DNA of 64,000 nt from the IMG/VR virus record IMGVR_UViG_3300022602_000038, positions 32,001 through 96,000 of that record. The stretch is one strand, 5' to 3'. Origin of the DNA: a virus. A program made the translations under genes and the position numbers. This document shows, in pieces, positions 453 to 44,459 of the stretch. Below the pieces are notes generated by a model, which worked only from the letters and a program-made list of their open reading frames with translations, made no database searches and had not been told where the DNA came from. Position 1 is the first letter of the stretch. The number at the start of each line of letters is the position of its first letter.

Positions 453-460
453 TATAAGTA
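453..460 (+). promoter_or_regulatory. late promoter motif TATAAGTA (T4 TATAAATA variant)
   Basis: 9 nt before ATG 470; same TAA(G/A)TA motif precedes most structural genes. Confidence 0.7.
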
Positions 461-469
461 TTAATATAT

Positions 470-823
470 ATGCGCGACCAATATAAAGTTTTACTAGAAA
501 GATATCAGGAAATGCCTTCTAATGAACCAGAAGAGGAACCAGAAATGGATATGGACGAAGAAGAAGGTAACCATGAACTAATAGTTAGATATGAATTTGT
601 TATGGAAACAGATGATAAGGTGCTTAGTAAGCTTGATAGAATAGCTGCTCAAGTAGGAATAACAGAAGGGTATGATGGTGCTGAAATATATGGAGCTTTT
701 AATCCACCTATGCGTCAGGTGTATTATGTCAGTAAAGATGTCAGGCAATTAGAGAAATTAGCTGATCTTATTGTTTCACAAATACCTGATATAGAGTTTG
801 AAACTTACATACAAGAAGCGTAA
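470..823 (+). CDS. acidic protein with shared N-terminal leader, putative internal head protein
   Basis: starts MRDQYKVLLERYQE, similar to leaders of 830, 1624, 2108, 3252; late promoter upstream. Confidence 0.75.
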   Translation: MRDQYKVLLERYQEMPSNEPEEEPEMDMDEEEGNHELIVRYEFVMETDDKVLSKLDRIAAQVGITEGYDGAEIYGAFNPPMRQVYYVSKDVRQLEKLADLIVSQIPDIEFETYIQEA

Positions 824-829
824 TAAAGT

Positions 830-1189
830 ATGCGCAACCGGTACAAAGTACTAGAAGAGGCATATGATAAAGTAAAAGAGAACAATTGGTGGGAGGAGCT
901 TAAGAAAAAGAACCCTATTTTATATGCCAAGCACAGAGAGAAGTACAAGGCCAAGATGCGCGAGTACAACAAAAAGAGGTTAGATGCAATTAAACCAGAC
1001 AGAAAACCTAAACCAGAAAAGCCATCTGGTTTAGTGCACCCAACAGTGCCAAGAGCAATACAAAGTGCGCAATGGTGGAGGGATTTAAAAGCACAAAACC
1101 CAGAAGAATACGCTAGAAGAAACGCCATAAAGACTCAAAGAGCTAGAGAAAGAAGAGCACAGCTAAAGAACACCAATAAGGCAAGCTAA
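830..1189 (+). CDS. basic protein with LxEAY leader and internal WWxxLKxxNP repeat
   Basis: MRNRYKVLEEAYDKVKE; WWEELKKKNP and WWRDLKAQNP repeats; Lys/Arg rich. Confidence 0.75.
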   Translation: MRNRYKVLEEAYDKVKENNWWEELKKKNPILYAKHREKYKAKMREYNKKRLDAIKPDRKPKPEKPSGLVHPTVPRAIQSAQWWRDLKAQNPEEYARRNAIKTQRARERRAQLKNTNKAS

Positions 1190-1217
1190 AAAAAGGTAAA
1201 AAAAAGGTAATATTTTG

Positions 1218-1246
1218 TTGCCTTTATACCTTAAAGTATGCATAAT
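1218..1246 (+). promoter_or_regulatory. sigma70-like early promoter
   Basis: TTGCCT-17-CATAAT with A-rich UP region. Confidence 0.65.
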
Positions 1247-1293
1247 GTACGTATAATAAAAGAAACAATTACGTTTCATTATTATAATGTTCT

Positions 1294-1554
1294 ATGAAAG
1301 TTAAAAATCATCTATTATCAAAGAAATCTCTACCTATTGATACAACCATACCAGTACGTTATGCCACTCAACTTAAAAACAAGAAAGGTGAATGGTACTT
1401 TCCAGGTGGTACATTAACGCACGATTCAATGAGAAGTGCTAACAAGATACTAAAGGTTTATAGCCTTGGACCTAAATCGTTTAAGGATGCCGTTGGTAAG
1501 ACTGTTAGATTTATTAGATTTGACCCGGTTATTGTTAAAGAAGTAGAGCTATAA
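1294..1554 (+). CDS. hypothetical early protein (86 aa)
   Basis: ORF between promoter 1218 and terminator 1561. Confidence 0.7.
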   Translation: MKVKNHLLSKKSLPIDTTIPVRYATQLKNKKGEWYFPGGTLTHDSMRSANKILKVYSLGPKSFKDAVGKTVRFIRFDPVIVKEVEL

Positions 1555-1560
1555 CATATT

Positions 1561-1595
1561 AAAAGGATATATCTTAATTGGTATATCCTTTTTTT
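1561..1595 (+). terminator. intrinsic terminator
   Basis: AAAAGGATATA/TATATCCTTTT stem followed by T run. Confidence 0.75.
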
Positions 1596-1623
1596 ATTGT
1601 ATTATAATGATAAGTAATGGTAC

Positions 1624-2103
1624 ATGAGGAGTCAATATAAAGTTTTAGCAGAAGCTTATAATAGGGTACTTGAAACAAGTAAGCCTATTACAAAAGAAGA
1701 CACCTCTAATGAGTGGTACAATGATGCAAGAAAGCAGATAGATAGTTCCGACGGAGCCTACGGGTTTTCTTTCTTTAAAACAATAAAGGATTGGCCACAT
1801 CCAGATGAATTTATAAAGTTTTTATGTAAACACATATACGGTGTTAGTGTAGATTATTTTGAAATAGTTACGTATGGTATTGATAAATTCATTACTACGA
1901 TGTTTGGACATGAGGTAGACAGTATTGCAGGGGATATAAGAGATAAGAACCCGCATTTAAGTCATAAAGAGATAAATGATATTTCAGATAAATTAGCGGT
2001 AAAAAAACTAAAAGAATATTATAACCAATTTAAAACTTACCAAAAGGCTCAAGCAGTACTTAAAAAAGGTTCCGAAGAATCCGGAGTAGACATAGACATA
2101 TAA
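1624..2103 (+). CDS. protein with LxEAY leader and C-terminal GVDIDI tail
   Basis: MRSQYKVLAEAYNRVLE...AQAVLKKGSEESGVDIDI; TAAGTA at 1611-1616. Confidence 0.8.
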   Translation: MRSQYKVLAEAYNRVLETSKPITKEDTSNEWYNDARKQIDSSDGAYGFSFFKTIKDWPHPDEFIKFLCKHIYGVSVDYFEIVTYGIDKFITTMFGHEVDSIAGDIRDKNPHLSHKEINDISDKLAVKKLKEYYNQFKTYQKAQAVLKKGSEESGVDIDI

Positions 2104-2107
2104 TAAC

Positions 2108-2560
2108 ATGAGAGACAACACTACCAAACTACTAGAAGAGGCATATAAAAAGGTTCAAGAAAGAGATGGACGTTTAGAGACATGGGTAAAAGGAGATCAA
2201 AATGAACGTAATGAATATAAAAACTACGTTCAAACCAAGTTTAATGGGGATTATAGAAAGGGTGCACAAGCGTGGGCTCAAATGAAGAACAGACCCACGG
2301 ATGATGTCTTTAATGATAAAGCACGTTTAGATGCATTTATGAAAGCAGACTTCGACTTCAACACATTTGATGAACAGGATTGGAACAATTATTGGCTCCT
2401 AGCACAGCACTGCGATAAAAATAGGGAATTTCAAAAGAAAGCACTAGACATTATCGAACAGTATCTTGGCACCGAACACAGTCATTATAAGTACCTTTAC
2501 GATAGATTATCCTTAGCACTGACCGGTAAACAGAAGTACGGCACACAGAATGCAAAATAA
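2108..2560 (+). CDS. DUF6624-like domain protein with LxEAY leader
   Basis: WLLAQHCD..FQ..AL...YLYDR......QKYGTQ motif; leader MRDNTTKLLEEAYKKVQE. Confidence 0.7.
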   Translation: MRDNTTKLLEEAYKKVQERDGRLETWVKGDQNERNEYKNYVQTKFNGDYRKGAQAWAQMKNRPTDDVFNDKARLDAFMKADFDFNTFDEQDWNNYWLLAQHCDKNREFQKKALDIIEQYLGTEHSHYKYLYDRLSLALTGKQKYGTQNAK

Positions 2561-2576
2561 GGACTATATAAGGGGA

Positions 2577-3044
2577 TTATCTTAGTTCACCTTCGTCAGC
2601 ATTATGATCCTTGATCCACTGTAACAGATCATTGCCCTTTAGTACATTATCAATAGTTATAGTTTCTGTGCTTGTGTAGTTGCCCGGTTCAATGCTACCC
2701 ATATTTTGATTAGAGATATGTTTATTAAACTTACCAGCATTTGTATGTATCACTAATAAAGCACCGTGTTTGGATATATCTGCACTAGAAGGGATATAGT
2801 TACCTTTGTTTAATTTTCTTTGTATCTGACTAGACAGTGCACAGTATACCGCTCTTGCCCCTTTTGAATCACTAGCAAACACCGCCGGTATGGCCTCTTT
2901 CTTATAAAGCTCTTGAGTAAACTTTCCTACAGTCGGAGTTAACCCCTGTGCAAGTATTGACGGAACATTATCAATTAGGGTACCGTGATACAGTCTAAGA
3001 CTATCATCAGTTGTATTTTCATAAAAGAAATCTCTAAACGTCAT
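2577..3044 (-). CDS. putative ADP-ribosyltransferase-fold protein (HGT/PARP-KptA-like), likely virion packaged
   Basis: LYHGT..NV.SIL.QGL and downstream VFAS strand; start moved to 3044 (MTFRDFFYE) because TATAAATA lies at 3050-3057 on the minus strand. Confidence 0.6.
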   Translation of the reverse strand: MTFRDFFYENTTDDSLRLYHGTLIDNVPSILAQGLTPTVGKFTQELYKKEAIPAVFASDSKGARAVYCALSSQIQRKLNKGNYIPSSADISKHGALLVIHTNAGKFNKHISNQNMGSIEPGNYTSTETITIDNVLKGNDLLQWIKDHNADEGELR

Positions 3045-3049
3045 TATAG

Positions 3050-3057
3050 TATTTATA
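3050..3057 (-). promoter_or_regulatory. canonical T4-type late promoter TATAAATA
   Basis: exact motif 5 nt upstream of ATG at 3044. Confidence 0.7.
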
Positions 3058-3100
3058 AAAAAGCTTGATATAATGCAATAAGTTACCATAATACGGTGTT

Positions 3101-3250
3101 ATGAGTAACTTTAACTGTGAACAATATGTACTAGATAACTACGGTGAAGAAATAGTAGATATGTTCGTAGAGGAGTATGGTATATATGCTACAACATATC
3201 TATATAGCTTAACACAGGATGAAGTAGATGATGTATTAGCTAAGTACTAA
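3101..3250 (+). CDS. small acidic protein (49 aa), absent from ORF track
   Basis: MSNFNCEQYVLDNYGEEIVDMFVEEYG...LAKY*; TTGATA-16-CATAAT promoter at 3065-3092. Confidence 0.6.
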   Translation: MSNFNCEQYVLDNYGEEIVDMFVEEYGIYATTYLYSLTQDEVDDVLAKY

Positions 3251-3251
3251 T

Positions 3252-4472
3252 ATGAGAGATAGGACTACCATACTACTAGAAGAGGCATATGAAAAGGTTA
3301 AAGAAGCGGCTATACTACCGGATGAATCTAAAGTTGATAAAGTAATGGATATATTGAACAAAGCACAACAGTTAAGACAGCAAGGATATAGTGTAAAAAA
3401 AACAGAACAAAATGCAATAAAAGAGTTGGCACTTCTTAATATAACCATTAAGGATTTGGAAGCGCCTATAGGCGCCGGGATTGTATACAATCCCATCAAT
3501 TTTTATGATACAGGAAGAATAGTAATTAGTAGAGATTTATTTAAAAGGTACATAGACTTGCCCTTTAGTAAAAGTAAGGTCGAGTGTAAACATAGAGAGA
3601 AAGTAATGAGACGATTAATCGGTCACGAATATATTCATCAATTGCAACTTATACGTAAATTAAAAAGGATCCATTCATTAAATAAGCCTGCAGGCATCTA
3701 TGATAATGAAGAAAGGATCAATTCATTAAAAAAGCTTGCAGGCATCTATAATAATGAAGTACGGTATCATAGCCGCCATTTTGATAATAAAGACCCTAAG
3801 TTTTATTATAACAATTATAACGAAATAATGACCTATGCCTATGAAATGGCAAAGAAGATATACGATAAGTTGAATATAGATAAGTACAAAGCAAGGAACT
3901 TTACCAAGGATCAAATTTACAAAGTAGTACAAAGGTTTATGCAAGTAGATAGATTTGCTACAAACAAAATGAGTAAAGAAATTGTTCAGCACCTCACCCC
4001 AGATAATGTAAAACGGTACTACAAGTACATTTACGATTATGTAGGACAGTTGTATGATGGTATATTAAAAGAACCAAACAATAAGGTAAGGGATTCATTA
4101 AACGAAAAGGGTGTTATAGTTAGTGGAAGATTTTATGGTCAAACGATACAAGACTATGTAGAGAGGTTTTTACCTAAGCATTTTAAAGAAAAAAATAAAG
4201 TCAACAAAGAAGAATTATTAGACTTTGTAAAGTATATTCAAGATAATATCTATAAACATATACCAGTTACTCGTACTAAATTCTCCAGTAAAAATGTATT
4301 ACCTTTATTGTATCTAGCAAATAAGATTATACTAAGTAATCCTAATTTAACTTCAAATGCAGTATATAAACAAGTATTAGAGTTCCTTTATAAAGAGTAC
4401 ACCTACCATAAGAAGACACAAGCAGTACTTAAGAAGGGCTCTAAAGAAGCAGGCATTGATATAGATATATAA
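3252..4472 (+). CDS. HExxH zinc metallopeptidase-like protein with LxEAY leader and GIDIDI tail
   Basis: IGHEYIHQLQ plus downstream YYNNYNEIMTYA (candidate third ligand E); leader MRDRTTILLEEAYEKVKE; tail TQAVLKKGSKEAGIDIDI. Confidence 0.7.
   Translation: MRDRTTILLEEAYEKVKEAAILPDESKVDKVMDILNKAQQLRQQGYSVKKTEQNAIKELALLNITIKDLEAPIGAGIVYNPINFYDTGRIVISRDLFKRYIDLPFSKSKVECKHREKVMRRLIGHEYIHQLQLIRKLKRIHSLNKPAGIYDNEERINSLKKLAGIYNNEVRYHSRHFDNKDPKFYYNNYNEIMTYAYEMAKKIYDKLNIDKYKARNFTKDQIYKVVQRFMQVDRFATNKMSKEIVQHLTPDNVKRYYKYIYDYVGQLYDGILKEPNNKVRDSLNEKGVIVSGRFYGQTIQDYVERFLPKHFKEKNKVNKEELLDFVKYIQDNIYKHIPVTRTKFSSKNVLPLLYLANKIILSNPNLTSNAVYKQVLEFLYKEYTYHKKTQAVLKKGSKEAGIDIDI
3665..3760 (+). repeat. in-frame 48-bp tandem duplication
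   Basis: RIHSLNKPAGIYDNEE / RINSLKKLAGIYNNEV. Confidence 0.8.
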
Positions 4473-4505
4473 GTACGTAGTTATTACATCTACTTTAAAA
4501 TCTAT

Positions 4506-4557
4506 ATCCGTTTTGAGAAATTCGAATTTCTAAATCCAGAAGTGCATACAAATTTGG
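4506..4557. repeat. dispersed repeat copy 1 with palindromic core GAAATTCGAATTTC
   Basis: 28 bp at 4517-4544 identical to 8970-8997. Confidence 0.85.
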
Positions 4558-4658
4558 CTCCCTATATAGAGAACACTTATAGCCTATAGAGCACTAACTG
4601 GACTGTGCCCCGGACTATATCAGACGAAGTAGATATCACTAAGCACCTATAAAAGTAA

Positions 4659-4718
4659 ATCCAGTAACGGAAATTTGAATTTTGTAAAACAGAAGTGCAA
4701 CTAATTACGGAAGCACTA
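4659..4718. repeat. dispersed repeat copy 2 (degenerate)
   Basis: ATCCAGTAACGGAAATTTGAATTTTGTAAAACAGAAGTG...GCACTA aligns to the 8943-9018 unit. Confidence 0.65.
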
Positions 4719-4875
4719 TTGGAAATGAAATAGAGAGAAATGGAATACAGGAGAAAAATGTGTGGAGATGAGTGGAGTGTATTAAACTAAGTCTCTCCGC
4801 CAATTTTTTTCAAGCTTTTTTTTGCAAAATTTTGTAATATGGCTTTTTTTATTGCACATTCTAAGGTATGTTTAT

Positions 4876-5244
4876 ATGAATAACACGTGGAGGTATAGTG
4901 TCCCGACTAGGAGTGATTTGCCAATATATGTTTCTTTTGGTGATGTCAACGATTATGATATACGGTTATTTGACAAGGAGGTACCTGCAGGTAAGGTGTT
5001 ATGGGTGCATGCAGATATACCTAAGTTACCGGTCAATAAGGAGCAAACGGTAATAGACTCTAGGTTTCAGGAGCTAGCTAACAGTGATAGTACAACAGAG
5101 TGGTTTGATAACGACTGGTTTGCTGCAGGGTTCCACTATGCTGTAGAGGTGATACATAATGAGGTACAGAAGGTTAGTACTAAGAAATCCACCAAAACAT
5201 CTCCTTTTATTGATCCGGCAATATATTTCAAAAAAGATATATAG
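4876..5244 (+). CDS. hypothetical protein
   Basis: ORF 4822-5244; first ATG at 4876 is the more plausible start. Confidence 0.65.
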   Translation: MNNTWRYSVPTRSDLPIYVSFGDVNDYDIRLFDKEVPAGKVLWVHADIPKLPVNKEQTVIDSRFQELANSDSTTEWFDNDWFAAGFHYAVEVIHNEVQKVSTKKSTKTSPFIDPAIYFKKDI

Positions 5245-5475
5245 CAATTTAATAAGGTGAGTCTATAAAAGAATCCCTTAATCAACTGTATTACATCCCT
5301 TTTATCCCTATTAGAAATAATAATTGGAGTATTCGTATATAAACTTTCTTTATATTGGATTTTTTTGGAGTATAACTTATAAGTTGCTCTAATAGCACCT
5401 GTATAAAATTAATGATGTTAATAGAGAGTGTAAATTTCAATAAATTATTAGATTTATTTGGATTAAAAAAAAGAG

Positions 5476-5504
5476 TTGCCTGTTATTAAAAAATAGCCTA
5501 AAAT
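5476..5504 (+). promoter_or_regulatory. sigma70-like promoter driving candidate ncRNA
   Basis: TTGCCT-17-TAAAAT. Confidence 0.6.
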
Positions 5505-5507
5505 GAA

Positions 5508-5593
5508 GTACTGGGGTGAAAGCGCCGTAATCTGCAGTACCCCAATGGCTAGGCGCTTCTTGGAGGAGGTTCCTTATACGCCAATAATGAGGA
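5508..5593 (+). ncRNA. candidate pseudoknotted small RNA
   Basis: GC-rich island; TGGGGT(5512-17)/ACCCCA(5539-44) crossed with AAGCGCC(5520-26)/GGCGCTT(5552-58); 3' hairpin TCCTTAT/ATGAGGA; begins near the predicted TSS. Confidence 0.5.
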
Positions 5594-5658
5594 TTTAATT
5601 AAAAAGGTCAACTAAAAAAGGGATTATTTAATAAAAAAAAGAGTTGTAATATTACAAA

Positions 5659-5734
5659 AAATCTAGATTATTAATTTTGTATTAGTTATAAAACACTTAT
5701 AATTAAACATTAACAAAATAAACCAAAATAATAA
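5659..5734 (+). repeat. 76-bp perfect direct repeat copy 1 (promoter -10 plus 5' leader cassette)
   Basis: identical to 6294-6369; each ends 1 nt before an ATG and follows an AAAAAGAGTTG -35 region. Confidence 0.92.
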
Positions 5735-5735
5735 T

Positions 5736-5972
5736 ATGAGTAATAATAAAAGAGAAGTTAAATTAATAAATTGTAACTTATTAGATGTTAAAAATAACAA
5801 ACTAATTAAAATGGAGGGGTATGTTAAAATTGTAAATTATGATAATAAAGAGTATTTTGAGGTAAATTTAAGAGATGGGGATTTTAATAATGAGAAGTAT
5901 ATTTTAATAGGAAGTAATGAGAAGTTTAAGATTTTTGGTAAAGATGATGATGGAGGATATTTTGTAATTTAA
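5736..5972 (+). CDS. hypothetical early protein, mostly C-free codons
   Basis: 78-aa ORF directly after repeat copy 1. Confidence 0.7.
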   Translation: MSNNKREVKLINCNLLDVKNNKLIKMEGYVKIVNYDNKEYFEVNLRDGDFNNEKYILIGSNEKFKIFGKDDDGGYFVI

Positions 5973-6268
5973 ATAAATTAAGTAATTTGAATTTTAGTGT
6001 TGATTTAATAATAAAATAATATAGATTAATAATATGAAAAATAATTATAAAATAATTAAATTAAGTGTTGAAGAATTTATAGAAAAATATTATAATAAGT
6101 ATTTAGAAGAAAAATATGAAGATAATTGGATGGATGTAGTTATAGAAGAATTATTAAAAGATAATATTAAAATAGAATTTATAGATTAATAGAAATTAAG
6201 TAGTTTGAATTTTAGTGTTGATTTAAATAATAAAATAAAAAAATAATTAAAAAAAGTTTGTAATAATG
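5803..6268 (+). other. 466-bp tract with no cytosine on the + strand
   Basis: last C at 5802, next C at 6269; many G retained. Confidence 0.92.
6034..6189 (+). CDS. small acidic protein (51 aa) encoded without any C, absent from ORF track
   Basis: MKNNYKIIKLSVEEFIEKYYNKYLEEKYEDNWMDVVIEELLKDNIKIEFID*; GTTGATTT -35-like motif upstream. Confidence 0.6.
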   Translation: MKNNYKIIKLSVEEFIEKYYNKYLEEKYEDNWMDVVIEELLKDNIKIEFID

Positions 6269-6293
6269 CAAAAAAGAGTTGCATTAATAAGAG

Positions 6294-6369
6294 AAATCTA
6301 GATTATTAATTTTGTATTAGTTATAAAACACTTATAATTAAACATTAACAAAATAAACCAAAATAATAA
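6294..6369 (+). repeat. 76-bp perfect direct repeat copy 2
   Basis: identical to 5659-5734. Confidence 0.92.
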
Positions 6370-6370
6370 C

Positions 6371-6631
6371 ATGTCAGTCGAAATACAAAATAAAGTTAGT
6401 CTACCTATTAAAATCGAGAAAGGCATTAAAATGCCTTTCTCTTCTAAAGTAGCCACTCCTACTAAAAAATATAATAACTATAAAAAAATATTTAATAAAA
6501 TGCAAACAGGCGATTCTTTTATAGTAGAGCAAACAAAATTATCTGGCATTTCACAAGCATCTAAAAAATTAAACTTTAACTACATTAGTAGATCTATTAA
6601 CGATCAAGTAGTAAGAGTTTGGAAGGTATAA
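6371..6631 (+). CDS. small putative DNA-binding phage protein
   Basis: IKIEKGI.MP...KY...M..GDSF...VRVW pattern typical of a widespread small phage family. Confidence 0.65.
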   Translation: MSVEIQNKVSLPIKIEKGIKMPFSSKVATPTKKYNNYKKIFNKMQTGDSFIVEQTKLSGISQASKKLNFNYISRSINDQVVRVWKV

Positions 6632-6658
6632 CTAATACAACAATACACAACAAAACTA

Positions 6659-6691
6659 GCTTGCCCTTTTAATTAAGGGCAAGCATTTTTT
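6659..6691 (+). terminator. intrinsic terminator
   Basis: GCTTGCCCTT/AAGGGCAAGC stem plus T run. Confidence 0.8.
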
Positions 6692-6699
6692 ATTTAAAA

Positions 6700-6810
6700 A
6701 TGAAAGCTTTCTTAATTATCTCTACCCTAATCTTATTCGTTATTTTCTGGTTCTTATTAGATATGAACTCTTTATTAGAAGAGTTAGAAGAAGAGGATTT
6801 TTACGAATAA
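6700..6810 (+). CDS. small single-pass membrane peptide (36 aa)
   Basis: MKAFLIISTLILFVIFWFLLD followed by acidic tail. Confidence 0.5.
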   Translation: MKAFLIISTLILFVIFWFLLDMNSLLEELEEEDFYE

Positions 6811-6865
6811 TATAGTTGCAAGGTTTAATAAAAACAGATATATTATAAGAGTAAACTAAAATAAC

Positions 6866-7012
6866 ATGAACAACAAAAATATATTAAATAAAATCAGTAA
6901 AGTAGACGAACTCTTACAAGAATTAAAGGAGTTATATGATGCAGGTAAAATGACAGTAGAGGAAGAAGCTAGTTATGAAAACTTTCTCTATAATTTAAAC
7001 GACACAATTTAA
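6866..7012 (+). CDS. small helical protein (48 aa)
   Basis: MNNKNILNKISKVDELLQELKELYDAGKM...; TTGCAA -35 at 6816. Confidence 0.55.
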   Translation: MNNKNILNKISKVDELLQELKELYDAGKMTVEEEASYENFLYNLNDTI

Positions 7013-7053
7013 AGCTATTAAAATAGTGTTGATTTAATAATATTATATAATAG

Positions 7054-7090
7054 AGGAGATATATATTAGGTTATATATCTCCTATTTTTT
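7054..7090 (+). terminator. intrinsic terminator
   Basis: AGGAGATATATA/TATATATCTCCT stem plus T run. Confidence 0.75.
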
Positions 7091-7235
7091 ATATGCTTCC
7101 AATTATACCTGCCCACACCTCCCCATTATTATAATAAAACTTTCTCATTAAAAGGCAACTTAAAAAGGATTTTATTTTCTTAAAAAAGGATAATATTTTG
7201 TTGACCTTACTAATAATTTAATCCACATTGTTTGT

Positions 7236-7841
7236 ATGAAACGATACCAACAACCAATTGCAGTAGATGGGTGTATGGCTAGTGATTACAATCATCTTAC
7301 ACTCAATATAAAAGGTTTAAAGAAAGAAGAACAACCACCTTTAAACCAGTCAAGCTATTTAGTTTACAATGCAACTGGTGCATATGTAGGGTGGATAGAT
7401 GATAAATCTGTAAAGAAGTACCTTTACAGCTACTTACCTTATCATTATAGCAATTTAACCAAGAGTACAGTAAAGGGATCTAACATTAAACTAGTATGTA
7501 GTAAGTCTACAGGTAAGATAGTATTATTGTTTAAGTCAACTTATATAAATGAAGAGAGTGTATTAGAATTGAATGATAAGGTGGAACTAGCCAATTACTT
7601 TCTTAAACACGAACTCAATAACATTACATTTGACAAGGTTTATGATGGACGTCAGTATCAGATATACTGGACTGATAAGCACAATCTAGCACCACATCTT
7701 ATAAAGGTATTAGATGATAAGTTAGATAAAGTAATGAAAGAGTTCAAGCAAGAAGTTGAACGTTCAATAACAAACATAATCAAAGAAAGAGAAGTAATAA
7801 GGCTTGCCGAACAGGAAACAGGCATTACTATTGACATATGA
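7236..7841 (+). CDS. hypothetical early protein with GITIDI tail
   Basis: TTGACC-17-CACATT at 7201-7229; C-terminus AEQETGITIDI resembles tails of 1624 and 3252. Confidence 0.75.
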   Translation: MKRYQQPIAVDGCMASDYNHLTLNIKGLKKEEQPPLNQSSYLVYNATGAYVGWIDDKSVKKYLYSYLPYHYSNLTKSTVKGSNIKLVCSKSTGKIVLLFKSTYINEESVLELNDKVELANYFLKHELNNITFDKVYDGRQYQIYWTDKHNLAPHLIKVLDDKLDKVMKEFKQEVERSITNIIKEREVIRLAEQETGITIDI

Positions 7842-7964
7842 CATTAGATCAACAACTACAGGCCTTTGTAGAACAGACAAATAAGGACATAGAATATTTT
7901 CAGGAAATAATTAGAAATAATAGTTGCAATTCGGATGAATCCATCCATAATAGATTTGTTAACC

Positions 7965-8237
7965 ATGACAACCACAACAAATACAACAATGAATACTACA
8001 GCTACACAAACAGCTGAAGCTAAGTTAAAACGTGCGACCACAATCGCTACTAACCAAGCAGTTAAGTCTTCTGCAAGAGGTTACACTCTTCCATTAGTTT
8101 TAACATGTACGGTAACAGGAAAGAGTGTTAAGTACACATCAGCAGCATATATTGAAAAATGTATCGACCGTGCTGGTTCACTCGAGAAGTTAATCGCTAC
8201 TTACGTATCGCGTGAGGGCCGTCGTCAATCAAAGTAA
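7965..8237 (+). CDS. basic hypothetical protein (CTVTG motif)
   Basis: promoter TTGCAA-16-CATAAT (7924-7951) places the start at or after 7965. Confidence 0.7.
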   Translation: MTTTTNTTMNTTATQTAEAKLKRATTIATNQAVKSSARGYTLPLVLTCTVTGKSVKYTSAAYIEKCIDRAGSLEKLIATYVSREGRRQSK

Positions 8238-8306
8238 TACAACAATCAACCTATAATACAATAATATAAACTAACTGAGTCCTTAGACTAATACGGATTA
8301 TAAAAA

Positions 8307-8345
8307 AAATAGGGTACCTGTTAATGTGTAGCAGGTACCCTATTT
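8307..8345. terminator. inverted repeat, probable terminator
   Basis: AAATAGGGTACCTG/CAGGTACCCTATTT. Confidence 0.7.
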
Positions 8346-8369
8346 AATTATACCACCAAAGCAGCTAAC

Positions 8370-8570
8370 ATGATAGACCCATACAACACATTAACGGATG
8401 ATATATCACTCTGCTTTAGACAAGTAGCATTAGATTTTAGATTATTAGACATTATTGACAGTTTAGATCAGAAAGACAAAGACCATGTTTTTAATTGGCG
8501 ATACCGTTCAAATCAAAACAAACTCCGTAGTAGGAGAGATAACAGACATCGATTACTCCAAAAAGGGTGA
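8370..8570 (+). CDS. hypothetical protein (66 aa)
   Basis: ORF only. Confidence 0.45.
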   Translation: MIDPYNTLTDDISLCFRQVALDFRLLDIIDSLDQKDKDHVFNWRYRSNQNKLRSRRDNRHRLLQKG

Positions 8571-8641
8571 CCCAGTGTACCTAGTACATTCACAAGGCAA
8601 ACAATATTTAACAGAAGACAAAGACTTAACTTTTATACCAG

Positions 8642-8842
8642 ATGAATACAAAGAATAAGAACAACAATAACATTAGCTTCTTTTTAGGCACTACCATACT
8701 ACTAACTGCTGTTGGGTGTGGTGTAATAATAGGCATAAAATATCTTGCACTAAAGACCTTTTTATCTATATTAATTACATCATCAATGATAGCTCTATTA
8801 AGTACATTCATTACTGATGATGCTGATAGAGATGACATATAA
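8642..8842 (+). CDS. small membrane protein (two hydrophobic segments)
   Basis: ISFFLGTTILLTAVGCGVIIGI and TFLSILITSSMIALLSTFI. Confidence 0.6.
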   Translation: MNTKNKNNNNISFFLGTTILLTAVGCGVIIGIKYLALKTFLSILITSSMIALLSTFITDDADRDDI

Positions 8843-8886
8843 CATTTTACCTAACCTATTGGAGTGGGTTAGGTGGTAAGAACATA

Positions 8887-8934
8887 AGATGGCTCACTAG
8901 ATGGTTTGTTATTATCCATCTAGTGGGCTCATCT
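8887..8934. terminator. long hairpin, possible terminator
   Basis: AGATGGCTCACTAGATGG/CCATCTAGTGGGCTCATCT. Confidence 0.55.
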
Positions 8935-8942
8935 ATTTAATA

Positions 8943-9101
8943 TGACCTACATATATAGATCCGGTATTGGAAATTCGAATTTCTAAATCCAGAAGTGGTA
9001 CCAAATTTGGATGCACTACCCAATTTGACTTATGTATATAGATCCGGTATTAGAAATTCAAATATTAAAATCCAGAAGTGGTACCAAATTCAAATACACT
9101 A
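8943..9101. repeat. dispersed repeat copies 3 and 4 in tandem (76-bp unit, 83-bp period)
   Basis: TATATAGATCCGGTATTRGAAATTC...AAATCCAGAAGTGGTACCAAATT twice (8943-9018, 9026-9101). Confidence 0.88.
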
Positions 9102-9151
9102 TCTGAAACAAATAGCTTGATTAGAGTAATAAACAATATACAAACATATAA

Positions 9152-9382
9152 ATGAAACAACAACCCCTTAACATTAATAGAAAGATACTACTCAATAGCA
9201 TTATACAATTGGCTGAAATAGCTAGCGTATATGAACAAGAGGACATCAGTCAAGTACTCTTTGCTACTGCTGGTACCATTCATGCTAATAGCACCCCACA
9301 ACTAGCCCAACACATCATGCCCTTTGTTAAGAAAGAACTTGATAGAGTAACCTTCCTACAACGCACCACCGATAACAACTAA
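9152..9382 (+). CDS. hypothetical protein (76 aa)
   Basis: ORF; stop overlaps next start (TAATG). Confidence 0.7.
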   Translation: MKQQPLNINRKILLNSIIQLAEIASVYEQEDISQVLFATAGTIHANSTPQLAQHIMPFVKKELDRVTFLQRTTDNN

Positions 9383-9558
9383 TGCTCTATACACTACACT
9401 GGACCAGACCTAATGGCCAGATCATTACCGGCACCATTACCTTTAATGAAGAGGATACATTCTTTGGTATCAAACTCTATAACAATAATAGATGGCTTGC
9501 TACAGCACACCACTCGCTATATGAAGGAGGCTTTTATAGAGTAACACTCCAATCATAA
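9382..9558 (+). CDS. hypothetical protein (58 aa), absent from ORF track
   Basis: MLYTLHWTRPNGQIITGTITF...VTLQS*, coupled to previous stop. Confidence 0.6.
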   Translation: MLYTLHWTRPNGQIITGTITFNEEDTFFGIKLYNNNRWLATAHHSLYEGGFYRVTLQS

Positions 9559-9890
9559 CCAAGTCCCGTTTCTGACTATGGTTTGTTTCCAAACCAGGTT
9601 TTCAAACGGACTTAAGCGCACAAATTAACTTTATATACACAATAGAAAAAAATCAATAAAAAACTGCATGCCAACTTTTTAGCACATCCCCGTAGGCAAA
9701 TTCCCATAGTACGCTTTTCTTCAGTAATCCCGTTTTTTGCGTAACACAAATTTTTTTTCGCGCGAATTTTTTTTTGGCTAAATTACATATATGGGGGTTT
9801 TGGGTAATCCCGTATATACAGTGCGCAGGTATAATAATACATAAAGAGGTAGTTGTTATGGGTGCATGATTACATAAGTATTGGGTACTC

Positions 9891-10268
9891 ATGCAAGCAC
9901 GTTCTATAAAAATATTACAAGAAGCATACGAACAAGTTAACCGGAGTAGAATGCACAGTATCACTAAGCCGGTGATGAACGAGAGAGGCGGCGAACAAGA
10001 AGACGATGATGATATCAACTCGGCAGCTGACGGGGCAACGCTACACATAGCTAAAGCCGGCATATGGTCTGTAGTGAACGGGTTCTTAAGGGGTAATTTA
10101 ACGTTTATTGGTAAGGGTGGTAAAGTTTACACTTTATCTATGGTAGACAAGCTATTGCAATCGGCTACTAATAAGGAGGAATTAAGGCACGTATTTGACT
10201 TATTAGATATGGAGAGGTATATGAGTGGTAAAGCACCGGAACGATTTGACCCATCTAACAACGAATAA
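9891..10268 (+). CDS. protein with LxEAY leader
   Basis: MQARSIKILQEAYEQV; TAAGTA at 9875-9880. Confidence 0.75.
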   Translation: MQARSIKILQEAYEQVNRSRMHSITKPVMNERGGEQEDDDDINSAADGATLHIAKAGIWSVVNGFLRGNLTFIGKGGKVYTLSMVDKLLQSATNKEELRHVFDLLDMERYMSGKAPERFDPSNNE

Positions 10269-19658: not shown

Positions 19659-21677
19659 ATGTCCTCAGATACGCCTAACTATATTTATCCGCACGAGTTA
19701 CCGTCAGCAACTCCGCTACCTTATGATTTAATATATTTAGAACAGCCTAATTCAGACGGCACTTATTCTTCTTATAGTACTTCCCTTTCTGCACTTTCAG
19801 CGGCCGGGTTTGTTGGACCGCAAGGTGTTTCTGGTTATTCCGGTTATTCTGGTTTAGGTCTATCTGGTTATTCTGGTTTTAGTGGTTTTAGTGGTTCCGG
19901 GGTTTCTGGTTATAGTGGTTATAGCGGGCAACCCGGTGCAGGAGCTGCTTCTGGTTATTCCGGTATAAGCGGTTATTCTGGTATTTCTGGTTACTCAAGT
20001 TACTCTGGTTACTCTGGTATTTCAGGCTTTAGCGGTATTAGTGGTTATAGTGGTATAAGCGGTTATTCAGGTATTTCAGGCTTTAGTGGTATTAGTGGTT
20101 ACTCCGGTTATAGTGGTATTTCTGGCTACAGTGGTTATTCAGGCTATAGCGGTATAAGTGGTTACGTTGGTATTTCAGGTTATAGCGGTATTAGTGGCTA
20201 CTCTGGTTATTCTGGCCAGTCAGGTTTTAGTGGTATAAGTGGTTGGTCTGGTTATTCTGGCTGGTCGGGCATTTCTGGTTATTCTGGTACTTCTGGCTAT
20301 AGTGGTTGGAGTGGGTACTCAGGTATTAGCGGTTATTCAGGCTTCTCTGGCTACAGCGGCTACAGCGGTATTTCTGGCTACTCAGGTTATTCTGGTCAAT
20401 CAGGTTTTAGTGGTATTAGTGGTTACAGTGGTACGAGTGGTTATAGTGGTACGAGTGGTTATAGCGGCACAAGCGGGTTTAGCGGTTGGTCCGGTATTTC
20501 AGGTTTCTCTGGAGTAGAACCTACATTTTCAAGTAATATAGTTGTTAATATTTCTGCAGGTTATTTCGGTCAATACTCTAACGGTATGACAATACCGGCA
20601 GCTGGCTTAACACCATCTCAAGTCATATTACTTGCTTGTCAACAACAAATACCTCCAACAGCTAGCATATCTTCTTCTACAACTATAGCATTTAATCAAA
20701 CTTCAATTAGTAACGTAATAAACTTTGGTTATACACTTAATAGTTTAGGAGCTACAGCTTTATCTGGTACATTATATTATAGAAGAAATAGTTCTGGTTC
20801 ATATGCAGTATTATTAAGCGGTACACCAGCAATATCTGCAACAAGTATGTCTTATACTCATACTTTAACAGATACGAATTATAATACTCAAAATTTTCAA
20901 TATCAATATACATTTGTAGATTCTAACAATCAATCTGCTACACCGGTTACAAAAACAATAACCCCTACATCTTATGTCAACCCTACTGTATCGTTGTCGG
21001 TAGTAGCAGCAAGCGGAACAACTTCTCCAGAAACAAACGCTTCAAGAGAATTAGGTAATATAGCTTCTACTATTACCGGTACTATAACTAATAACAATAA
21101 TAGCACATATGTACCATTAAGTGCATATGTACTACAATATAATGTTAATGGTGGTAGTTATACAAACTTAACTTCTGCAATATCAATAGGTCCTGGTACA
21201 TCATCAATGACCTCGTTTACACATAACGCTCCAACGTTAAGTGCTTCTACATCTATTGCATACCGTTTAGCAGTATACGACTCATATCAAAATTACATTT
21301 CAAGTAGTGTCGCGACTGGTACAAACACAGTAAACTTCTACACCTTAGTATGGTATGGACCTACTTCAGTGTTACCGGTCAATACAGCTAATATTAGAGC
21401 TTTACCTAGCAAATCATTTATAAGTGGTTTAGCTAATCCGTTTAACTTAGTAACAGGCACCACATACGACACGTTTACAGTTGCGTTCCCAAGCCCGCAT
21501 ACAATTACTCAAGTAATTGATACTGGTAACTTAAATGCTAATATTACTTCTAGTTATGTATTATCGGCTTGGAGCGTTAACAGTTATAACTTAGTACCTG
21601 TCACGTACAATGTATATACATTGTCTAACGCTACTCCATATTCACCATCGACTACACATCAAATTACGTGGTCTTAA
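19659..21677 (+). CDS. collagen-like (Gly-X-Ser)n fibre protein with C-terminal beta-rich domains
   Basis: GYS/GIS/GFS triplets about 19823-20512. Confidence 0.8.
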   Translation: MSSDTPNYIYPHELPSATPLPYDLIYLEQPNSDGTYSSYSTSLSALSAAGFVGPQGVSGYSGYSGLGLSGYSGFSGFSGSGVSGYSGYSGQPGAGAASGYSGISGYSGISGYSSYSGYSGISGFSGISGYSGISGYSGISGFSGISGYSGYSGISGYSGYSGYSGISGYVGISGYSGISGYSGYSGQSGFSGISGWSGYSGWSGISGYSGTSGYSGWSGYSGISGYSGFSGYSGYSGISGYSGYSGQSGFSGISGYSGTSGYSGTSGYSGTSGFSGWSGISGFSGVEPTFSSNIVVNISAGYFGQYSNGMTIPAAGLTPSQVILLACQQQIPPTASISSSTTIAFNQTSISNVINFGYTLNSLGATALSGTLYYRRNSSGSYAVLLSGTPAISATSMSYTHTLTDTNYNTQNFQYQYTFVDSNNQSATPVTKTITPTSYVNPTVSLSVVAASGTTSPETNASRELGNIASTITGTITNNNNSTYVPLSAYVLQYNVNGGSYTNLTSAISIGPGTSSMTSFTHNAPTLSASTSIAYRLAVYDSYQNYISSSVATGTNTVNFYTLVWYGPTSVLPVNTANIRALPSKSFISGLANPFNLVTGTTYDTFTVAFPSPHTITQVIDTGNLNANITSSYVLSAWSVNSYNLVPVTYNVYTLSNATPYSPSTTHQITWS

Positions 21678-21691
21678 TAAATATTTAAAAA

Positions 21692-23617
21692 ATGTCTTTA
21701 ACAACAGGCCTACAACTTCCATACGGTATACAACCAGTTGACCCACTACCGGTTGATACGTGGTCAGGTCCTTATACAGGCGCAACTGTTACAGCAGCAC
21801 TTTCAGCTGCAAATGCAACTATACCGTCTGGTGTAAGGTTCCAGTCCATGCAAGTACGGCTTATTGTAGCTGGTACACCTTATATATATTGGTACTATGC
21901 AGGTATAGCAGATACTAACTTAGTTTTATTTCCTGGTGTTAATGTACCTAATTTAACTAACGGTTCTTATACTTTTCAATTAAGTGCTACTGCTCTTTCT
22001 GGTGGTGCAATAATATGGCCTGATGGTACTGTACAATATACAGCTGCAACAGGTATATCTGGTTACTCAGGCTATTCAGGTACAAGTGGCTACTCTGGTA
22101 TAAGTGGTTATAGCGGTGTATCTGGTTACTCTGGTATAAGTGGTTATTCTAGCTACTCTGGTTATTCTGGTATCTCAGGATTTTCTGGCATAAGTGGTTA
22201 TAGCGGTTACTCTGGTATAAGCGGCTATAGTGGTTATTCAGGCATTTCAGGCTATTCTGGTACATCAGGTTATTCCGGTTATTCCGGTATATCAGGTTAT
22301 AGTGGGTTATCTGGTTTTAGTGGTATTTCAGGTTACAGCGGTATAAGTGGTTATTCTGGTTATTCCGGCTATAGCGGTATTTCCGGCTACTCAGGTTATT
22401 CTGGTCAGTCAGGTTTTAGTGGTATCTCTGGCTACTCAGGTATAAGTGGCTACTCTGGTTGGTCTGGTATTTCAGGTTATTCAGGCGTATCAGGTTATTC
22501 TGGTATATCTGGTTACAGTGGTTATTCTGGTATTTCCGGTTACTCAGGCATTTCTGGTTATAGTGGTTATTCAGGCATTTCTGGTTATTCAGGCATTTCC
22601 GGGTATAGCGGTATAAGTGGTTACTCCGGTTATAGCGGTATATCTGGCTATAGTGGTTACTCTGGTATATCTGGCTATAGCGGTATTTCAGGTTATTCAG
22701 GTATAAGTGGTTATTCAGGCTATAGTGGTATAAGCGGTTACTCTGGTATCTCTGGTTACAGTGGCTATAGCGGTGTATCAGGTTACTCTGGTATCTCTGG
22801 TTACAGTGGTTACTCAGGCATTAGTGGTTACAGCGGCATCTCTGGTTATAGTGGTATATCTGGTTACAGTGGTTACTCTGGTATTTCAGGTTACTCAGGT
22901 ATATCAGGCTTTAGCGGTATAAGCGGTTACTCTGGTATCTCTGGTTACAGTGGTACATCTATTAATATTTCTAGCCAGGTAATTACATATAGTAATTCAT
23001 TTAGCGCTGGACAAGTAGTACGTTTAGATAATACCGCTGGTAACTGGTATCTTGCAAAAGCAGATAACGCAACAGATGCTGAGTCTACTGGCGTGGTTCA
23101 ATCAGCTACATCTTCAAATTTCTTAATTGTATATGACGGTTTAATTACAGGTTTAACTGGCTTAACGCCAGGAGAATGTTATTATTTAAGTGATGTAACA
23201 GCTGGTGCTACTGTAACATATTCTCCAAGCGCGTACGGCACTGTTTCAAAACCGATTATGCGCGCTATTACTTCTACTACCGCATTAGTAGTTAATGAGC
23301 GTGGTATACAAAACTCTGCAGTTACTTCTTATAGAGTCCCAACAACATCAGTTTCTTTATCAGCATATACTGTACAAGCAAGTGACTATTATGTTGGAGT
23401 AAATTACAACGGATTAGCTTTAATTCAATTACCAGTAGGTATAACCGGTACAACTTATATTATTAAAGACGAGTCTGGTTTGTTAAATGGTACAACAAAT
23501 GCAATTACTGTATCTGCAACAACGCCAAATAGAATAGATGCTTTAACTCAGGCAAACTTAGTTGGACCACATGCATGTCTAACTCTTATATTTAACAATC
23601 AATGGAACTTAACATAA
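21692..23617 (+). CDS. collagen-like (Gly-X-Ser)n fibre protein with cement/decoration-like domain
   Basis: triplet tract about 22052-22957; LAKAD...GVVQ...GL.PG..YYLSD domain shared with 24828 protein. Confidence 0.8.
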   Translation: MSLTTGLQLPYGIQPVDPLPVDTWSGPYTGATVTAALSAANATIPSGVRFQSMQVRLIVAGTPYIYWYYAGIADTNLVLFPGVNVPNLTNGSYTFQLSATALSGGAIIWPDGTVQYTAATGISGYSGYSGTSGYSGISGYSGVSGYSGISGYSSYSGYSGISGFSGISGYSGYSGISGYSGYSGISGYSGTSGYSGYSGISGYSGLSGFSGISGYSGISGYSGYSGYSGISGYSGYSGQSGFSGISGYSGISGYSGWSGISGYSGVSGYSGISGYSGYSGISGYSGISGYSGYSGISGYSGISGYSGISGYSGYSGISGYSGYSGISGYSGISGYSGISGYSGYSGISGYSGISGYSGYSGVSGYSGISGYSGYSGISGYSGISGYSGISGYSGYSGISGYSGISGFSGISGYSGISGYSGTSINISSQVITYSNSFSAGQVVRLDNTAGNWYLAKADNATDAESTGVVQSATSSNFLIVYDGLITGLTGLTPGECYYLSDVTAGATVTYSPSAYGTVSKPIMRAITSTTALVVNERGIQNSAVTSYRVPTTSVSLSAYTVQASDYYVGVNYNGLALIQLPVGITGTTYIIKDESGLLNGTTNAITVSATTPNRIDALTQANLVGPHACLTLIFNNQWNLT

Positions 23618-23618
23618 A

Positions 23619-24818
23619 ATGAGTTATAACTATTTTCAAGAAACATTAGTACCTTCAACAAGTGCCTGGTCTATAGGTACAGTTAGCAGACCATTTAAAG
23701 ATATTTGGTTAGGTTACGGTTCTCTTAATTTAGCTAATGTTAATACAGGAGCATCTGGTATTGCGTTAGATAATACTAATAACATTCTTACATTAGCACA
23801 GGGCAGTGCAGGGTTTCAAATAATAGACCCGTACAGTAATACAATATTTCAAACTACAAGCGCAGGTCAGACTACATTATATACTTCCCAAGCTTCAGCT
23901 GGTACGTTAGGCGCTTTTGCAGTTGTTGGTAGCGGTAACCGTACTACACAAGTAGTAACTAACCCCGGTGTAATGTTTCATGTCACTGGTAACGATAATT
24001 TAAATAATCGTATAATATATGATGCTTTCGGTTCAAGTGGTAGTGTTAATGTATTCCCTCAACTTATTGGACGTAGTGCTAGAGGTTCAGCAACAACCCC
24101 TACAAATGTATTATCTGGAGATGTTCTTTTTAGAATAACAGCAAACGGGTATAATGCTTTAAGCGGCTTTACAAACCCATCTGGTGGTACTAGTAGCCCG
24201 TCAACTATAGAATGCGTAGCTACAGAGCCGTTTAGTGGTTCTTCTGTTGGTACAGAATGGCACATTTATAATGCTACAAAAGGAGATACATCAAATACAA
24301 AAACTCTTGATTTAATCATTAATGATAAAGGTGTAACAGTACCTGTAGCAAGCGCTGGCATTACATTTGGAGACGGATCATTTCAAAATACAGCATTTAA
24401 TGCAGTTTCCGGAACGTGGGTACCGCAATTATCTGCAGCAACAAACGGCACTGGGTTTAAGTATAATATGTCTAGTACTACAGGTAATTATTATAAAACC
24501 GGACGTAGTGTATTTGCAACATTTTCTATAGTTGTTTCATCTACAGACACCGCAAGCGGACAGGTATATTTGACTAATTTACCTTTTCCGGTAGTTAATG
24601 GTAGTGGTGTTTGGGGAACATTAAGCGTGTACCGGTACGGAAATATGTCTACATCTGTATCTCAAATAGAAGGTGGTAATGAAGGTAACGCACAAGACTT
24701 CACTTTATATTATCAAGATACTGGTCCTGGTGCAGGTGGCGTTAACGGTCTTACAGTAGCACAATTTACAAGTACATCCTTCTTATATGGATCTATGACT
24801 TACATCAGTCAAACCTAA
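23619..24818 (+). CDS. tail fibre-like structural protein
   Basis: LVPS....IG....PFKDIWL start, ITFGDGS.Q.TA hinge, GTWVP..G.Y.K.GR.V...LPF fibre tip pattern. Confidence 0.65.
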   Translation: MSYNYFQETLVPSTSAWSIGTVSRPFKDIWLGYGSLNLANVNTGASGIALDNTNNILTLAQGSAGFQIIDPYSNTIFQTTSAGQTTLYTSQASAGTLGAFAVVGSGNRTTQVVTNPGVMFHVTGNDNLNNRIIYDAFGSSGSVNVFPQLIGRSARGSATTPTNVLSGDVLFRITANGYNALSGFTNPSGGTSSPSTIECVATEPFSGSSVGTEWHIYNATKGDTSNTKTLDLIINDKGVTVPVASAGITFGDGSFQNTAFNAVSGTWVPQLSAATNGTGFKYNMSSTTGNYYKTGRSVFATFSIVVSSTDTASGQVYLTNLPFPVVNGSGVWGTLSVYRYGNMSTSVSQIEGGNEGNAQDFTLYYQDTGPGAGGVNGLTVAQFTSTSFLYGSMTYISQT

Positions 24819-24827
24819 GTATAATCA

Positions 24828-28856: not shown

Positions 28857-28865
28857 AAATAATGT

Positions 28866-29558
28866 ATGTTACTACAAAATATTAGTTTAAATAATGTTGT
28901 GTTATATGAAACAACTAATATAACAGATACTATATTTGGGTCGTTAACTGCAACTAGTTCTATTTCAGCGTATAATGCAGCGTCAGTTAATAGTTGGGTT
29001 CAAGTTACAGGTGGAGAATATGCTAAAGTGCAAACTTTAATAGGCACTGTTACATATGGTATGTCTAATACTCAGTTTCTTGGTGCTCAAACTGGTAATT
29101 CATTTAATGCTACATTCTCTGTAGCTATGTCTTCTAATCCTAGTACTGCATTACCAACTGGAACTTATTTAATAGGTTTCGCTACTAGAAGTGGTGTAAC
29201 AAGTACAGCAGTAGTAGCATTCCCGTTAGTAGGACCATCTTATTTATCTGGTACATATACTAGCGTTGGTAGTGCAAGCTACACTACTCCTGGAACGATT
29301 TCTAATACTTATTTTGTAAGAAAAGCACCAACATCTTCTTTATCTGCTCCAAGTTATATTGCTTATGGCAATTACCCTACAAGTGCAAGTTATGCTTATT
29401 TAGCAACTGGTGCAACAACTTGGCCAAACATGGGTGGTTACGCTACTACAAGCTTTAATACAGATCATACTGCTGCATCTGCAATTGCACCTTTTACAAC
29501 CTACAATTCAAACTTACCGTTCTATCAAATGCTCGGTACAACTACAAAGACTTGGTGA
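28866..29558 (+). CDS. Ser/Thr-rich structural protein
   Basis: ORF within fibre cluster, beta-rich composition. Confidence 0.65.
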   Translation: MLLQNISLNNVVLYETTNITDTIFGSLTATSSISAYNAASVNSWVQVTGGEYAKVQTLIGTVTYGMSNTQFLGAQTGNSFNATFSVAMSSNPSTALPTGTYLIGFATRSGVTSTAVVAFPLVGPSYLSGTYTSVGSASYTTPGTISNTYFVRKAPTSSLSAPSYIAYGNYPTSASYAYLATGATTWPNMGGYATTSFNTDHTAASAIAPFTTYNSNLPFYQMLGTTTKTW

Positions 29559-29589
29559 TAAAATCAATTTTTACTATAAATAATACGTA

Positions 29590-29937: not shown

Positions 29938-29995
29938 AATAATATAAACAAATACCTCATTATACTATTACAATATCGATAAATAATTAAACAGA

Positions 29996-30337: not shown

Positions 30338-30354
30338 AATTTTAACAAAACATC

Positions 30355-43669: not shown

Positions 43670-43690
43670 TTAAAGTACTTTAATTATACT

Positions 43691-43718
43691 AAAAGCCCTG
43701 GTAAAACAGGGCTTTTTT
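43691..43718 (+). terminator. intrinsic terminator
   Basis: AAAAGCCCTG/CAGGGCTTTTTT after tube gene. Confidence 0.85.
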
Positions 43719-43743
43719 ATTGTTCGTACATTAAGTATTAATA

Positions 43744-44457: not shown

Positions 44458-44459
44458 TT

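Follow-up and report, generated by a model that had tools for sequence, protein, structure and literature searches.

The window analysed here is a stretch of 64,000 nucleotides (nt), bases 32001–96000 of a 140,720-bp viral metagenome record (IMG/VR record IMGVR_UViG_3300022602_000038; G+C ~34%, estimated 65% complete), in which several plus-strand genes encode proteins that open with the same short peptide, here called the leader, on otherwise unrelated bodies, here called cargos. A preliminary description of the window had listed six such open reading frames (ORFs), starting at positions 470, 830, 1624, 2108, 3252 and 9891, and all six were confirmed with the N-termini quoted there. That description saw the set of leaders but missed a second element of the system, a C-terminal tag of ~13–30 residues ending in I-D-I that is shared by the 1624 and 3252 proteins, as well as a group of polyproteins encoded just upstream of the window. 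Genes are referred to by their start positions, and protein lengths are given in amino acids (aa). The carriers in the window, with one further gene that bears a C-terminal tag only, are:

470–823, plus strand: leader gene of 117 aa with an acidic cargo (isoelectric point, pI, 4.1); leader in codons 1–17, at 470–520
830–1189, plus strand: leader gene of 119 aa with a basic cargo (pI 10.6); leader at 830–880; starts 7 nt past the 470 gene
1624–2103, plus strand: single-module protein of 159 aa with both tags; leader at 1624–1674, C-terminal tag at 2053–2100
2108–2560, plus strand: leader gene of 150 aa; leader at 2108–2161; starts 4 nt past the 1624 gene
3252–4472, plus strand: protein of 406 aa with leader, H-E-x-x-H motif and C-terminal tag; leader at 3252–3305, tag at 4422–4469
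7236–7841, plus strand: protein of 201 aa with a degenerate C-terminal tag (7791–7838) and without a leader
9891–10268, plus strand: leader gene of 125 aa; leader at 9891–9944

In an alignment of nine leaders (the six window carriers and three others of the same record), M1, L8, E10 and Y12 were invariant. The invariant core can be written as [L/I]-x-E-x-Y, its Leu being residue 8 and its Glu residue 10; position 5 is aromatic, positions 7–8 are hydrophobic, and the Glu at 10 moves to 11–12 in longer variants. The fixed residues vary in codon between copies (Arg as CGC, AGG or AGA, Leu as TTA or CTA, Tyr as TAT or TAC, Glu as GAA or GAG), and DNA identity between copies of the leader is only 68%–71%. 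Because key residues stay fixed across synonymous codon changes, selection acts on the leader peptide, and a DNA-level repeat as its origin was ruled out by the same synonymous variation.

The pattern is not a product of chance. A hidden Markov model (HMM) of the leader, 18 positions long, was run against the 140-kb record in six frames and reached scores of at least 13 bits at ORF starts only. The minus-strand gene at 37428, which had been credited with a weaker version of the leader, scored 0.3 bits and is not a member. At least five further carriers were detected in the same record outside the window, bringing the number to at least 11 in all; in coordinates of the whole record (genome), the HMM identified:

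Genome 20672: leader carrier of 1027 aa
Genome 27565: leader carrier of 448 aa
Genome 30347: leader carrier of 489 aa with a GTG start
Genome 100804: leader carrier of 137 aa
Genome 103574, minus strand: leader carrier of 104 aa
Genome 5196: weaker leader carrier

Extending the scan from the genome to its relatives, as the preliminary description had suggested, likewise placed the leader on additional proteins and nearly always at the N-terminus. The second-round HMM was run on 1.7 Mb of related phage DNA (five records and 61 loci, 1.29 million six-frame residues) with a cut-off of 7 bits. It gave 73 matches at or above that score, a number in which 19 training sequences are counted, as are 27 orthologues from a single family, and 69 of the 73 were N-terminal (67 by script and two by eye). 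Conservation of the leader peptide extends to phages with ~37%–63% identity in their other proteins. A profile of the N-termini (42-aa alignment) detected homologues in public metagenomes, and a degenerate DNA pattern of the leader had no exact match in viral contigs beyond its own record.

The carriers had also been said to follow a late-promoter-like motif or to sit directly behind a gene that does, and both halves of this statement hold. TAAGTA lies 11–16 nt upstream of 470, 1624, 3252 and 9891, and the genes at 830 and 2108 start 4–7 nt past the motif-bearing genes that precede them. The four copies are:

455–460, plus strand: TAAGTA motif, 15 nt ahead of the 470 gene
1611–1616, plus strand: TAAGTA motif, 13 nt ahead of the 1624 gene
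3241–3246, plus strand: TAAGTA motif, 11 nt ahead of the 3252 gene and within the end of a 49-aa ORF (3101–3250)
9875–9880, plus strand: TAAGTA motif, 16 nt ahead of the 9891 gene

In its more general form, TAA(A/G)TA, the motif occurs 11–27 nt upstream of terminase, fibre, sheath, tube, tape-measure and baseplate genes. It was present at −8 to −32 in nine of nine heads of leader or tag transcription units (Fisher p ~1e-4, eight heads scored), compared with 51 of 172 other genes, 17 of 31 structural genes, four of 32 replication genes and 3% of random windows; the leader genes of relatives are also preceded by it. The leader units share this promoter-like motif with the structural genes, an association at the level of the motif from which late expression would be predicted. 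Another arrangement, an (A)GCTTGA(Y) box ~17 nt before a TATAAT-like hexamer, recurs ahead of leaderless genes (e.g., 3101, 9152 and 10866), and this class probably represents early or middle promoters. Start codons across the window are generally without a Shine-Dalgarno sequence.

The leader is a portable tag on otherwise unrelated, variable cargos. When the first 20 residues were trimmed and the remainder compared by BLASTP, 65 usable carriers fell into 34 cargo clusters, 31 of which were singletons, with cargo sizes of up to 1027 aa. The cargo-region genes of this phage have homologues in none of the four relatives introduced below, and searches of Pfam and PHROGs returned nothing above threshold, either for the six carriers and their neighbours or for ten carriers from relatives. 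The leader is also more constrained than the body and is set off from it by a disordered or insertion-prone linker. The only homologue of the 3252 protein (P0002) is 48% identical overall and ~78% identical in the leader, an orthologue of the 9891 protein (P0037) has the same leader with a 40-aa insertion directly behind it, and a metagenome orthologue of the 2108 protein (P0013) retains the leader. AlphaFold2 models of the 1624 module and of the family of the 137-aa carrier (predicted local distance difference test, pLDDT, 74 and 78, respectively) put the leader in a helix of its own, with a disordered linker behind it; in the 1624 protein the helix spans residues 4–17 and the disordered segment residues 19–24, ahead of a helical body. 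The leader helix is predicted to be amphipathic, with the conserved Y5, L8, Y12 and V15 on one face. Foldseek comparison of the two models with the PDB gave no significant match.

For individual cargos, the preliminary description had offered two functional labels. The 3252 protein is at most a putative peptidase, with an H-E-x-x-H motif, which is also present in P0002, and weak protein-atlas leads to SprT/ImmA-type zinc peptidases. The 2108 protein had been called DUF6624-like, for which Pfam, PHROGs and the protein atlas gave no support; the atlas returned nothing for this protein. Between the leader genes lies a minus-strand ORF (2577–3089) with a weak PARP/ADP-ribosyltransferase-like match (E 0.005, under the Pfam cut-off), which is reminiscent of T4 Alt but has neither leader nor late motif. 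In two of the relatives, small leader proteins (G001 140006, minus strand, and G003 155288, plus strand) have cargos that open with a Cys-rich C-x-C-x-C stretch and may be zinc-binding peptides.

The C-terminal tag has the consensus K-K-G-S-x-E-A-G-I-D-I-D-I and, besides the 1624 and 3252 genes, ends the genes at genome 20130, 20672, 23752 and 30347. These last four belong to the region just upstream of the window:

Genome 20130–31816 (window −11870 to −184): three polyprotein genes (1027, 1188 and 489 aa), 18 modules

The three polyproteins consist of seven, eight and three modules, respectively, with the tag recurring every 117–190 residues, and their genes are translationally coupled through overlapping stop and start codons. 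The 1624 protein is homologous to these modules, and modules recur between genes (residues 155–347 of the 23752 protein are 66% identical to residues 295–489 of the 30347 protein). Module bodies are ~20% identical and the tag is nearly invariant; DNA copies of the tag are 84% identical, and 74% of their nucleotide differences fall at third codon positions. All 15 internal copies of the tag are followed by E-E and then by A, S, N or G, and every gene stops directly after I-D-I. As I-D-I runs into E-E, each junction reads I-E-E, an L/I-x-E site, and at two junctions the residues after E-E repeat the A-Y-x-x-V of the leader. This combination of tandem modules with a repeated junction that contains a protease site is the layout of a protease-processed polyprotein, for which cleavage is predicted.

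A profile search of 1.84 billion representative proteins recovered only 22 relatives, including other polyproteins, and eight of the 22 are single-module proteins with both leader and tag. Another phage fragment, G006 (L116, 80–3273), contains eight leader genes in tandem, most of which end in a variant of the tag (L-D-I), the stop codon of each gene overlapping the start codon of the next. Because the same modules are separate coupled genes in G006, fused and unfused arrays appear to be alternative forms of one design. Other explanations of the junction, namely a 2A-like skipping site, an intein or a precursor of ribosomally synthesized and post-translationally modified peptides, were rejected on inspection, as their motifs were absent and the modules measure 117–190 aa. 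Directly upstream of the polyprotein operon lies a gene pair encoding a DUF2201/VWA putative metallopeptidase and a MoxR-like AAA ATPase (genome 15960–19310, window −16040 to −12690).

Judged by its terminase, gp19-like tube proteins and T4 baseplate domains, the phage is a member of the T4 superfamily. Its large terminase is ~36% identical to T4-superfamily terminases, and the record encodes a contractile sheath, gp19-like tube proteins, T4-type baseplate domains, a tape-measure protein and collagen-like fibres. No portal, prohead protease, scaffold or gp23-type capsid gene was found in the 140-kb record (searched with Peptidase_S77, Gp23 and Portal_T4), so the head module presumably lies in the missing part and was studied in relatives. 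The 137-aa carrier belongs to a well-conserved family that led to 65 related viral loci, and four large relatives were read whole: G001 (226 kb, complete), G002, G003 and G004. The closest, G004, has 81 of 178 proteins in common with this phage at a median identity of 63%; the other three have 37–47 proteins in common at 37%–40% identity. The capsid protein is at most 35% identical to any in 50,697 phage records, with no cultured phage close. Against the same records, neither megablast of the region nor tblastn of the 137-aa family (cultured phages) gave a match, and the lineage represents a deep uncultured branch of the T4 superfamily.

All four relatives encode a Peptidase_S77 (T4 gp21) protease beside a gp22-like scaffold gene and a gp23 capsid gene, in T4 order. 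The proteases are 30%–34% identical to T4 gp21 and keep its His and Ser blocks. The cut site of T4 gp23, L-T-E, aligns with L-E-E, L-T-E and L-N-E in the capsid proteins of G001, G003 and G004, respectively, and the proteases of three relatives open with L-V-E, comparable to LIE-9 of T4 gp21.

The capsid targeting sequence (CTS) carried by T4's internal proteins IPI, IPII and IPIII was reportedly described by Mullaney and Black in 1996 and is reviewed in PMC9026906 and PMC3012670. In the T4 genome (NC_000866), IPII and IPIII have a 10-residue N-terminal peptide that ends in I-A-E and is followed by Ala, the peptide of IPI has 19 residues and ends in I-T-E, and gp24 has a propeptide of 10 residues, the last three being L-R-E. 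In register the leader matches the IPII/IPIII and gp24 propeptides, with L/I at residue 8 and Glu at 10, and ~4–5 of 11 residues are identical between leader and CTS, over a stretch too short for statistics. Cleavage by gp21 takes place behind L/I-X-E, and the CTS is made up of the first 10 residues of IPIII, with targeting governed by its residues 4 and 7 and processing by residues 8 and 10 (PMC9026906). As in the T4 internal proteins, the leader is a short peptide that comes right behind Met in small proteins, acidic or basic, that are otherwise unrelated, the lineage has a gp21-family protease, and a conserved tag is combined with hypervariable cargo. The internal proteins of T-even phages form a diverse set in which the targeting sequence alone is conserved (PMC3012670), and more than 30 variants have been cited (PMC2839356); the principle of a conserved tag on variable internal proteins is therefore already known. 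However, the conserved stretch here is ~17 residues long, not 10, and contains an invariant Tyr two residues past the Glu and what may be a second site, V-x-E. In 65% of one genome at least 11 carriers were counted, whereas T4 has three internal proteins and Alt; cargos here extend to 1027 aa, many with a C-terminal tag, and the present system is known from its sequence alone. T4 Alt is cut by gp21 at both termini (PMC9026906), which provides a precedent for tags at both ends, and no sequence similarity to the bodies of Alt or gp24 was found in the carriers.

Two further systems invite comparison. The inner-body or ejection proteins of phiKZ, 201phi2-1 and SPN3US also form a large variable set, are head-internal and are cut after Glu by a gp21-related protease, and the N-termini of phiKZ-type paralogues have identical stretches in which cleavage motifs are found (PMC5694885). 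Unlike the ~17-aa leaders with L/I at P3, however, their propeptides mostly exceed 100 residues and have S/A/G-x-E sites. Their families are paralogous, whereas the cargos here are unrelated and without a Pfam match (including the pfam12699 type), and tandem polyproteins with a repeated junction tag, as found here, are not described for phiKZ-type phages in that source (PMC5694885). In phage P1, at most 30 N-terminal residues of DarB suffice to load a heterologous protein into the head, and the cargo defends against restriction (PMC9024508). In contrast to the leader carriers, the P1 Dar proteins are without a consensus tag (PMC9024508), and P1 is not a T4-type phage.

The central proposal of the preliminary description, a portable T4-CTS-like tag on unrelated late proteins, agrees with all of the computational tests run, and what failed were its details on the 37428 gene and on DUF6624, while the peptidase label has a motif and weak leads behind it. 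We think it reasonably probable that the leader is a T4-type capsid-targeting and processing tag that has been expanded and partly fused into polyproteins. This reading draws on the tags and their position, on their peptide-level conservation and portability, on the promoter motif, and on the protease and L-x-E sites of the relatives. The leader probably marks what the phage packs into the head, with docking, cleavage, packaging and ejection proposed by analogy. As in the T4 CTS, the ~17-residue amphipathic helix would act as an N-terminal propeptide, its first 10–12 residues ending in [L/I]-x-E, and would dock the nascent cargo on the scaffold core during prohead building. The gp21-family prohead protease would cut past the Glu, splitting the docking helix and freeing the cargo inside the head, from which it would exit with the DNA at infection. 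The phage lineage deploys the tag, always behind a late-type TAA(A/G)TA, on many unrelated, fast-changing small proteins, and the C-terminal tag marks a subset of them. Since each internal tag makes an I-E-E site, one leader could load three to eight modules that the same protease would later separate. A fuller version of this model, which we advance tentatively and hold to be doubtful as a whole, is a two-tag form of head loading in which the dock-and-cut helix and the C-terminal tag flank interchangeable modules, made either as separate coupled genes or as protease-cut polyproteins of three to eight modules, so that one leader may load a fixed-ratio cocktail of effectors.

Several observations weigh against a capsid-targeting role. 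The record, ~65% complete, contains no protease, portal, scaffold or capsid gene, and the protease is deduced from relatives, among which the closest has a protease without an N-terminal L-x-E and G002 has a capsid protein without L at P3 of the aligned site. The stretch of likeness to the T4 CTS is too brief to support homology on statistical grounds, and [L/I]-x-E is itself short and common by chance. In several leaders the Glu is followed by K, Q, R or V instead of a small residue, and the T4 model does not account for the invariant Tyr two residues past the Glu or for the conserved A-Y-x-x-V-x-E half. The 7236 gene, which has the tag only, is without TAA(A/G)TA upstream. Finally, the 137-aa family, the carrier with the widest distribution, is strongly conserved and sits among replication and tRNA genes, a degree of conservation and a setting unlike those of a hypervariable internal protein.

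A rival idea is that the leader and the C-terminal tag are conserved terminal elements of fast-evolving late non-virion proteins, which would bind one common partner (for example a chaperone of the phage, a target in the host or each other) without capsid targeting or cleavage. Such binding would suit a predicted amphipathic helix with Y5, L8, Y12 and V15 on one face, the conservation of Y12 and of the A-Y-x-x-V half beyond the need of a gp21 site, the many proteins that bear both tags and the several modules that are true paralogues. We nevertheless consider it unlikely, given that the leader core fits the L/I-x-E register of T4 propeptides at residues 8–10, that I-E-E plus a small residue is kept at every fused junction, that the linkers between tag and cargo are disordered and tolerate insertions, and that the 34 cargo groups share nothing else. 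Less likely still, in our assessment, is a propeptide that is removed by the protease but does not serve ejected effectors, the cargo being either kept inactive until head maturation or, like T4 gp67 and gp68, a structural or scaffold-like core protein that is degraded and expelled and never delivered. The T4 core proteins gp22, gp67 and gp68 are indeed cut at L/I-x-E and mostly lost from the head (PMC9026906), the acidic carriers resemble the acidic gp67, and the 137-aa family shows the conservation of a core gene. However, cargo turnover between relatives and the hyperplastic gene clusters fit accessory proteins better than assembly parts, and the cargos reach 1027 aa, with one containing a putative Zn-peptidase motif.

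It would also be conceivable that the shared 5' ends are a nucleic-acid element, such as a translation-initiation or regulatory sequence or a promoter-linked recombination cassette, of which the likeness between peptides is a by-product. The leader is always accompanied by the promoter motif, the DNA copies of the tag are 84% identical, and modules have apparently been exchanged at tag boundaries. Yet the low DNA identity of the leaders, whose key residues are held fixed through synonymous codons, the concentration of tag differences at third codon positions and the conservation of the peptide between divergent phages make this explanation highly improbable, and the capsid-targeting reading is the one we retain.

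Elsewhere in the window, the 5736 and 6371 genes are preceded by stretches of 50 nt (5686–5735 and 6321–6370) that are identical save for the last base and form part of a direct repeat, because of which the minus-strand ORFs 5663–5800 and 6298–6456 share C-terminal sequence. The sheath gene is followed by three consecutive paralogous tube-like genes (43133–45059; 178, 237 and 199 aa) whose N-termini are similar; a fourth gp19-like gene is located at 40074–40658.

Internal head proteins are a phage's first strike on its host, those of T4 including an inhibitor of a restriction enzyme and an enzyme that modifies RNA polymerase of the host, and as a rule they come to light only through virion proteomics of cultured phages. 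If the proposed role of the leader is true, the tags would allow the packaged and injected proteome of uncultured phages to be read from sequence, and a recognisable tag would allow candidate injected proteins to be listed from metagenomes; among the 34 cargo families found here, anti-defence factors would be natural to look for. Protein loading in phages of non-enterobacterial hosts is another use for which the tag could be tried. To our knowledge, nothing comparable to the polyprotein form with its second tag has been described in T4-type phages, and this form suggests a way in which several proteins may be loaded at fixed ratios.

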